Assembly: GCF_030013205.1 (NCBI RefSeq)
Contig: NZ_CP122648.1
Length of the DNA: 64,000 bases
Source: Escherichia coli
GTDB taxonomy: Bacteria > Pseudomonadota > Gammaproteobacteria > Enterobacterales > Enterobacteriaceae
Reading direction: 5' to 3' (one strand)
The translations under genes and the position numbers were made by a program. How positions within the stretch are numbered: the stretch's first letter is position 1; the number at the start of each line of letters is the position of its first letter. The notes under the pieces were generated by a model that saw only the letters and a program-made list of their open reading frames with translations, was not told where the DNA came from and searched no databases. Of the stretch, positions 5,568 to 5,652 are shown piece after piece.

Positions 5568-5614
5568 GAATATTATGGTTTCATAATCAAATCAATAACA
5601 CATCAATACCACGT

Positions 5615-5632
5615 TGTTTGGCTCGTGATACA
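5615..5632. promoter_or_regulatory. Candidate P2-type late-promoter activator (Ogr/Delta-type) site, TGT-N12-ACA, upstream of V
   Basis: TGTTTGGCTCGTGATACA in the 85-bp gap between the V start and the divergent FRG gene; spacing to the promoter not verified. Confidence 0.25.
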
Positions 5633-5652
5633 AAAAGGAGAATTATTAAGCA

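Follow-up and report, generated by a model that had tools for sequence, protein, structure and literature searches.

Within the window, by which is meant the whole 64,000-nt stretch of Escherichia coli DNA analysed here, the phage tail gene V and an FRG-domain cargo gene are transcribed divergently from either side of a gap of only 85 bp (5568-5652), and in this gap lies a TGT-N12-ACA dyad. The arrangement raises the question of whether the gap is a phage late promoter and, further, whether expression of the cargo gene is coupled to the state of the prophage. The reading favoured here, to which a probability of roughly 0.85 is given on the sequence comparisons described below, is that the gap would be PV, the late promoter of a P2/186-like (Peduoviridae) prophage, activated by a protein of the Ogr/B type and giving rise to a leaderless V mRNA. 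The dyad is very probably the activator site of this V-operon promoter, as predicted from its sequence and position, and a tie between cargo expression and prophage state is conjecture.

Anatomy of the gap between V and the cargo gene

The divergent gene order, the 85-bp separation and the presence of the motif were found, in coordinates and in sequence, as given in the preliminary description of the locus (Table 1). The V protein matched the Pfam family Phage_base_V and the GpV Apex motif. The dyad can be extended to TTGT-N12-ACAA, and its centre (5623.5) lies 56.5 nt from the A of the V start codon, leaving 47 nt between the 18-mer and the ATG. Distances from annotated site centres to the transcription start are 55.5 nt for P2 PO and PP, 56.5-58.5 nt for P2 PF and 57.5 nt for 186 pJ, in which a B site is centred at that distance from the mapped start; the value for the window, measured to the V ATG, thus falls within the mapped or annotated range of 55.5-58.5 nt and is the same as for P2 PV. 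The consensus TGT-N12-ACA is given as a secondary statement in PMC3931495, and the leaderless V mRNA and the -55 site of P2 are taken from the GenBank annotations of P2 and 186.

Table 1. Features of the S-V region, in window coordinates
Feature	Position	Strand	Description
Gene V	4989-5567	minus	192-aa baseplate spike/assembly protein; same ORF annotated in RefSeq; first gene of the V-W-J-I-H-G late operon (V, W, J, I, H and G on the minus strand)
Predicted V-operon start site	5567	minus	At the A of the V start codon, by transfer from the P2 annotation
AACCAT, -10-like hexamer	5575-5580	minus	Carries A2 and T6; lies 7 nt before the V ATG
TGT-N12-ACA dyad, TGTTTGGCTCGTGATACA	5615-5632		Perfect match; predicted Ogr/B-type late activator site for PV
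TTGGCT-17-AATTAT	5618-5646	plus	Best sigma-70-like candidate for FRG; -35 within the dyad; PWM score 8.1
AAGGAG	5635-5640	plus	Likely FRG Shine-Dalgarno sequence; separated by 2 nt from the dyad and by 12 nt from the ATG
FRG cargo gene	5653-6588	plus	311 aa; same in the RefSeq annotation of the identical E. coli locus
AT-rich variable cassette	5568-6661		Holds PV, the cargo gene and the last ~20 codons of S
Gene S	6603-7052	minus	Tail completion; Pfam Phage_tail_S, 2.6e-39

The core promoter accompanying the dyad is weak, having a poor -35 and a -10 that keeps only A2 and T6. The best-looking -10 is CATAAT (5577-5572), but transcription from it would start inside the V ORF, and the weaker AACCAT is therefore probably the element in use; the latter stands at -13 to -8, the offset at which P2 PV has CAATCT. 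The spacing of the dyad relative to a sigma-70 -10 element for V, which the preliminary description had put forward for comparison with mapped P2 and 186 late promoters, is compatible if the mRNA starts at the ATG, as is annotated in P2, and only on that condition. A Shine-Dalgarno sequence was absent upstream of V on direct reading of the sequence, and a PWM search of the V strand returned no strong activator-independent sigma-70 promoter, the best match scoring only 6.3. The only local repeat in the gap was a 7-nt inverted repeat, judged to be a chance occurrence, and an Rfam scan of window positions 1-12000 gave no matches.

Positional conservation in the S-V hotspot

Relatives recovered by megablast that carry other cargo, or none, are 95-97% identical to the window through V. 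The V ATG (5567) is the exact point at which this homology is lost; it is regained at about 6662-6703, some 60-100 nt inside the 3' end of S, and the break at the V ATG is also seen in more than 900 E. coli genomes. GC content is 0.32-0.44 inside the intervening cassette versus 0.51-0.62 in its flanks. S is the last gene of the upstream late operon and is convergent with FRG; its last ~20 codons (6603-6661) are AT-rich and non-homologous to the S of relatives with other or no cargo, so its C-terminus has been exchanged along with the cargo cassette. The convergent stop codons of FRG and S are 14 bp apart (6589-6602), and a scan of 5200-7200 revealed no terminator or terminator-like hairpin in the FRG-S interval, whereas the P2 record has a terminator between S and orf30.

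By sequence comparison the locus is an orf30-type S-V cargo hotspot of P2-like phages. Cargo was absent from 61 of 81 loci, in which the dyad begins a few nucleotides after the S stop codon, while the remaining 20 carry 13 cargo types beside a V that is ~98% identical, all of them AT-rich (GC 0.31-0.37, versus 0.56-0.59 for V) and with a main ORF divergent from V, as in an 848-bp cassette (L009 type) encoding a divergent membrane protein. The FRG gene product matched Pfam FRG (2e-19) and the PADLOC candidate defence family PDC-S15 (8.5e-32), which makes the gene a candidate single-gene anti-phage system; in PMC9503650 this domain is presented as a predicted NADase of the ART superfamily and an antiviral effector.

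Across the window, the motif was not enriched (13 matches, against 14.0 +/- 3.9 in shuffled sequences), so the motif alone is uninformative and its significance can come only from its position. Position was compared among 80 viral contigs with a V 97-99% identical to that of the window, in which the DNA upstream of V comprised 25 distinct sequences falling into 13 families. Pairwise identity between families is at the level of random sequence (mean 0.28), both from the dyad to the ATG and beyond the dyad, yet each of the 13 carries a perfect TGT-N12-ACA whose first base lies at -63 to -66 relative to the V ATG, a match at that position having a chance of ~0.0013 per family. Among the viral contigs L002-L084, with V ~98% identical, most cassette families have the perfect dyad in its longer form, TTGT-N12-ACAA. 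With the sequences anchored on the V ATG, the hexamer nAnnnT ends 7-8 nt before it across the families, being found at -13 to -8 in 10 of 19 family representatives and at -12 to -7 in 10 of 19, compared with 0-5 at other offsets, and there is also a weak T-35/G-34 signal. The proposal that the motif fits the activator site of P2-family late promoters is well supported by this conservation and by the matched spacing in P2 PV and 186. The conserved positions show the dyad and the -10 to be the features under selection, with the remaining promoter sequence free to vary, a pattern that should be expected of an activator-dependent promoter starting at the V ATG.

A similar position is occupied in the P2 clade, where the TGT starts at -65 or -64 in the 72 usable loci, a conserved distal half (TTGTG) being paired with a proximal half that is often degenerate. 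The dyads of the window clade are all perfect, while those of the P2 clade and 186 have a degenerate proximal half; this difference may possibly reflect different activator specificities.

An intact gene for a 72-aa Ogr/Delta-like zinc-finger protein (CX2CX22CX4C) is present in the same prophage remnant of the source genome, 7 kb from PV and just outside the window (L085 12396-12614). From the observed anatomy of the gap, its P2/186 geometry, the conservation among cassettes and this activator gene, we infer binding, start site and activity in the strain as follows. A zinc-finger activator of the Ogr/B/delta family would bind the dyad (5615-5632), ~56 nt upstream of the start, and the bound activator would recruit sigma-70 RNA polymerase to a poor core promoter (AACCAT, 5580-5575, with no good -35); transcription would then begin at or beside the A of the V ATG (5567), producing a leaderless V-W-J-I-H-G mRNA. 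The FRG gene would be AT-rich cargo in the S-V hotspot, antisense to the late operons in the manner of orf30 in P2. Since the V mRNA would be leaderless, the entire PV would fall within the swappable part of the hotspot, the promoter being part of the cassette and each variant keeping, in otherwise unrelated sequence, a dyad and a -10 at fixed distances from the V ATG.

The prophage remnant and expression of the cargo gene

Situated between ybjL and rcdA, the prophage is a decayed remnant. A truncated R (tail completion) is fused near 7221 to a truncated 186-type cII (window 7045-7621), the head, lysis and replication genes between R and cII having been lost, and next come an Apl-like gene, cI and int. 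The early lytic promoter would, across this R/cII' junction, now read apl-cII'-'R-S towards the 3' end of FRG. The baseplate/tail gene I (window 3178-3745) is split into overlapping ORFs (3178-3534 and 3413-3745), and in the identical ETEC locus it is annotated as frameshifted by RefSeq. The sheath/tube (F) operon is missing, with an acyltransferase gene in its place beside a partial D and the intact ogr-like gene (region: window 1-1001, plus strand; L085 12396-15001). This acyltransferase_3 family gene lies just downstream of G, where P2 carries Z/fun instead, and its site is a second cargo position in the same remnant.

The extent of this decay makes it a real possibility, though one short of even odds, that PV is genuine by descent and yet a functionally dead relic, given the loss of the F operon together with the head and replication genes, the fusion of truncated R and cII, and the frameshift in I. 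Set against this, the PV sequence, V, W, J, H, G and ogr are all intact, and the arrangement is conserved, the locus being 100% identical in 17-18 complete porcine ETEC E. coli genomes; an activator could, in addition, be supplied by a co-resident P2-like phage or P4-like satellite.

Two further sites in the window lie outside this account. The sequence TGTGTACAAATGTACACA (10675-10692) fits TGT-N12-ACA and forms a perfect 8+8 palindrome in the 83-bp divergent rcdA-ybjJ intergenic region; RcdA, a TetR-family regulator, probably uses it as its operator, and it is unrelated to the phage. Genes for a RelE/ParE-type toxin and an HTH antitoxin are annotated by RefSeq, in the identical locus, between rimO and dgcI (window 21591-22296).

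Only 20 nt separate the end of the dyad from the FRG ATG (29.5 nt from the dyad centre), so any FRG promoter must overlap PV or sit inside V. The overlap of cargo promoter and late control region that had been proposed is a spatial necessity only if FRG has a promoter of its own; no supported FRG promoter was found. In a PWM search, the best candidate, TTGGCT-17-AATTAT, was not above background, with 42% of dinucleotide shuffles scoring at least as high, and a generic promoter scan of 5200-7200 found nothing promoter-like in the gap.

One way in which such an overlap could act is by occlusion, with the cargo promoter on in the lysogen and blocked by activator and polymerase at PV, giving a negative coupling of FRG to the lytic state. 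The lack of space between dyad and FRG is in keeping with this, as are the placement of the candidate's -35 within the dyad and the finding that, in 8 of 12 cassette types, the best promoter-like site on the cargo strand starts between the V ATG and the cargo start. However, the candidate does not stand out from shuffled sequence, its transcript would begin at the FRG ATG and thereby skip the good AAGGAG, and the positions of candidate cargo promoters are inconsistent among cassette types, so that occlusion is judged unlikely. The broader idea that, in each defence-type cassette, the cargo promoter is embedded in the cassette's own late promoter of fixed geometry, such that the activator would turn the tail operon on and the cargo off together, is quite improbable as well.

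Positive coupling, in which a single site would activate both directions and FRG would be switched on with V, has a model in the PP/PO site of P2, which is centred 55.5 nt from each start and activates both of the divergent promoters, and the dyad of the window is likewise symmetric. An FRG transcript starting 55-58 nt away would begin at ~5679-5682, inside the ORF (26 nt in for a start near 5679), and the readable N-terminal stretch of FRG (~80 residues) holds no in-frame Met thereafter; moreover, the cargo starts near the dyad in all 13 cassette types. With the required start lying inside the ORF, co-activation is excluded by geometry, and this possibility is given almost no weight. The suggestion that cargo expression is coupled to the prophage state accordingly found no backing here, the PP/PO-style start being inside the ORF and no FRG promoter exceeding shuffled sequence.

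It is likewise scarcely credible that the motif is a chance match or the site of a host regulator such as CRP, with V lacking a dedicated promoter, since the positional conservation in 13 of 13 unrelated families and a geometry equal to that of the annotated P2 and 186 sites stand against the unremarkable number of matches in the window (13, with 14 expected) and the possibility of read-through from the upstream operon, S and V being only ~68 bp apart in cargo-less phages. The CRP consensus is TGTGA-N6-TCACA, i.e. a TGT-N10-ACA spacing; the site in the window has N12 rather than N10, and its flanks (TGTTT/GATACA) are unfit for CRP.

The value of the PV reading for basic knowledge is small, and its by-products are of possible use to researchers on P2 hotspots. 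Two points are modestly new: that the variable segment of the hotspot begins exactly at the start codon of the leaderless V, and so includes the late promoter, and that each cassette brings a PV unrelated in sequence and fixed in geometry. The fixed distances of the dyad and the -10 in unrelated cassettes offer a clean definition, through natural variation, of what PV needs. Were cargo promoters to prove embedded in PV, this would be a simple tie of defence genes to lysogeny. Term searches of two papers on P2 hotspots (PMC9122126 and bioRxiv 10.64898/2026.02.27.708500) found nothing on the S-V locus or its promoter.

Comparison with SEN8, 186 and P2

The same FRG cassette occupies the same place, between gp17 and gp18, in the Salmonella phage SEN8 (Felsduovirus), which is a complete phage. 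The gap is 96.5% identical between the two, compared with 83% for V, 91% for FRG and 86% for S, in a comparison of two alleles only; positions 5568-5621 are unchanged, the dyad differs at one N12 position, and SEN8 has a 1-nt deletion after the dyad and AATGAG before FRG instead of AAGGAG. As a signal of conservation, the high identity of the gap is suggestive, there being two alleles only. Only these two alleles, of the window and SEN8 types, were present in the collections searched, too few for footprinting of the FRG cassette to separate the promoter elements.

Resemblance to phage 186 extends from the immunity region, where CI, Apl-like and CII genes are likewise found, to the promoter of orf32, the V homologue. 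The TGT there begins 65 nt before the ATG, with CATTCT at -13 to -8. Unlike the window, 186 lacks cargo between its S and V homologues, and its dyad is degenerate in the proximal half.

Among the divergent promoters of P2, the PP/PO region also has one dyad, TGT-N12-(A/C)CA, between divergent genes. Both starts there are 55.5 nt from the dyad and both belong to late operons, whereas the second gene here begins 29.5 nt from the dyad centre and is cargo rather than a late gene.

The closest parallel in layout is P2 PV itself (NC_001895, 10225-10307), where 83 bp, compared with 85 bp here, separate orf30 (minus strand) from the divergent V (plus strand), and where orf30, which is AT-rich, non-essential and antisense, holds the place equivalent to that of FRG. 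The P2 record annotates an 'activator binding site; activation of pV promoter' at 10239-10266 and places the V-operon start at 10308, the first base of the V CDS, from which it follows that the P2 V mRNA is leaderless. Within the annotated site, 47 nt stand between the end of the 18-mer TGTCTGGTAGTTCTACAA (10243-10260) and the ATG, as in the window, so that in both the dyad starts 65 nt before the V ATG and is centred 56.5 nt from its A; both also have a weak nAnnnT -10 at -13 to -8 and a cargo Shine-Dalgarno sequence a few nucleotides from the dyad. The two gaps are nevertheless without sequence similarity. They differ further in the dyad, which reads TGT-N12-CAA in P2 PV and is a perfect TGT-N12-ACA here, in the cargo (Orf30 versus an FRG-domain protein), and in the clade of V, the protein being 211 aa in P2 and 192 aa here. 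On this comparison of sequences the layout is not peculiar to the locus in the window, being that of orf30-V in P2, and a promoter type known from P2 and 186 for decades has here an ordinary further instance.
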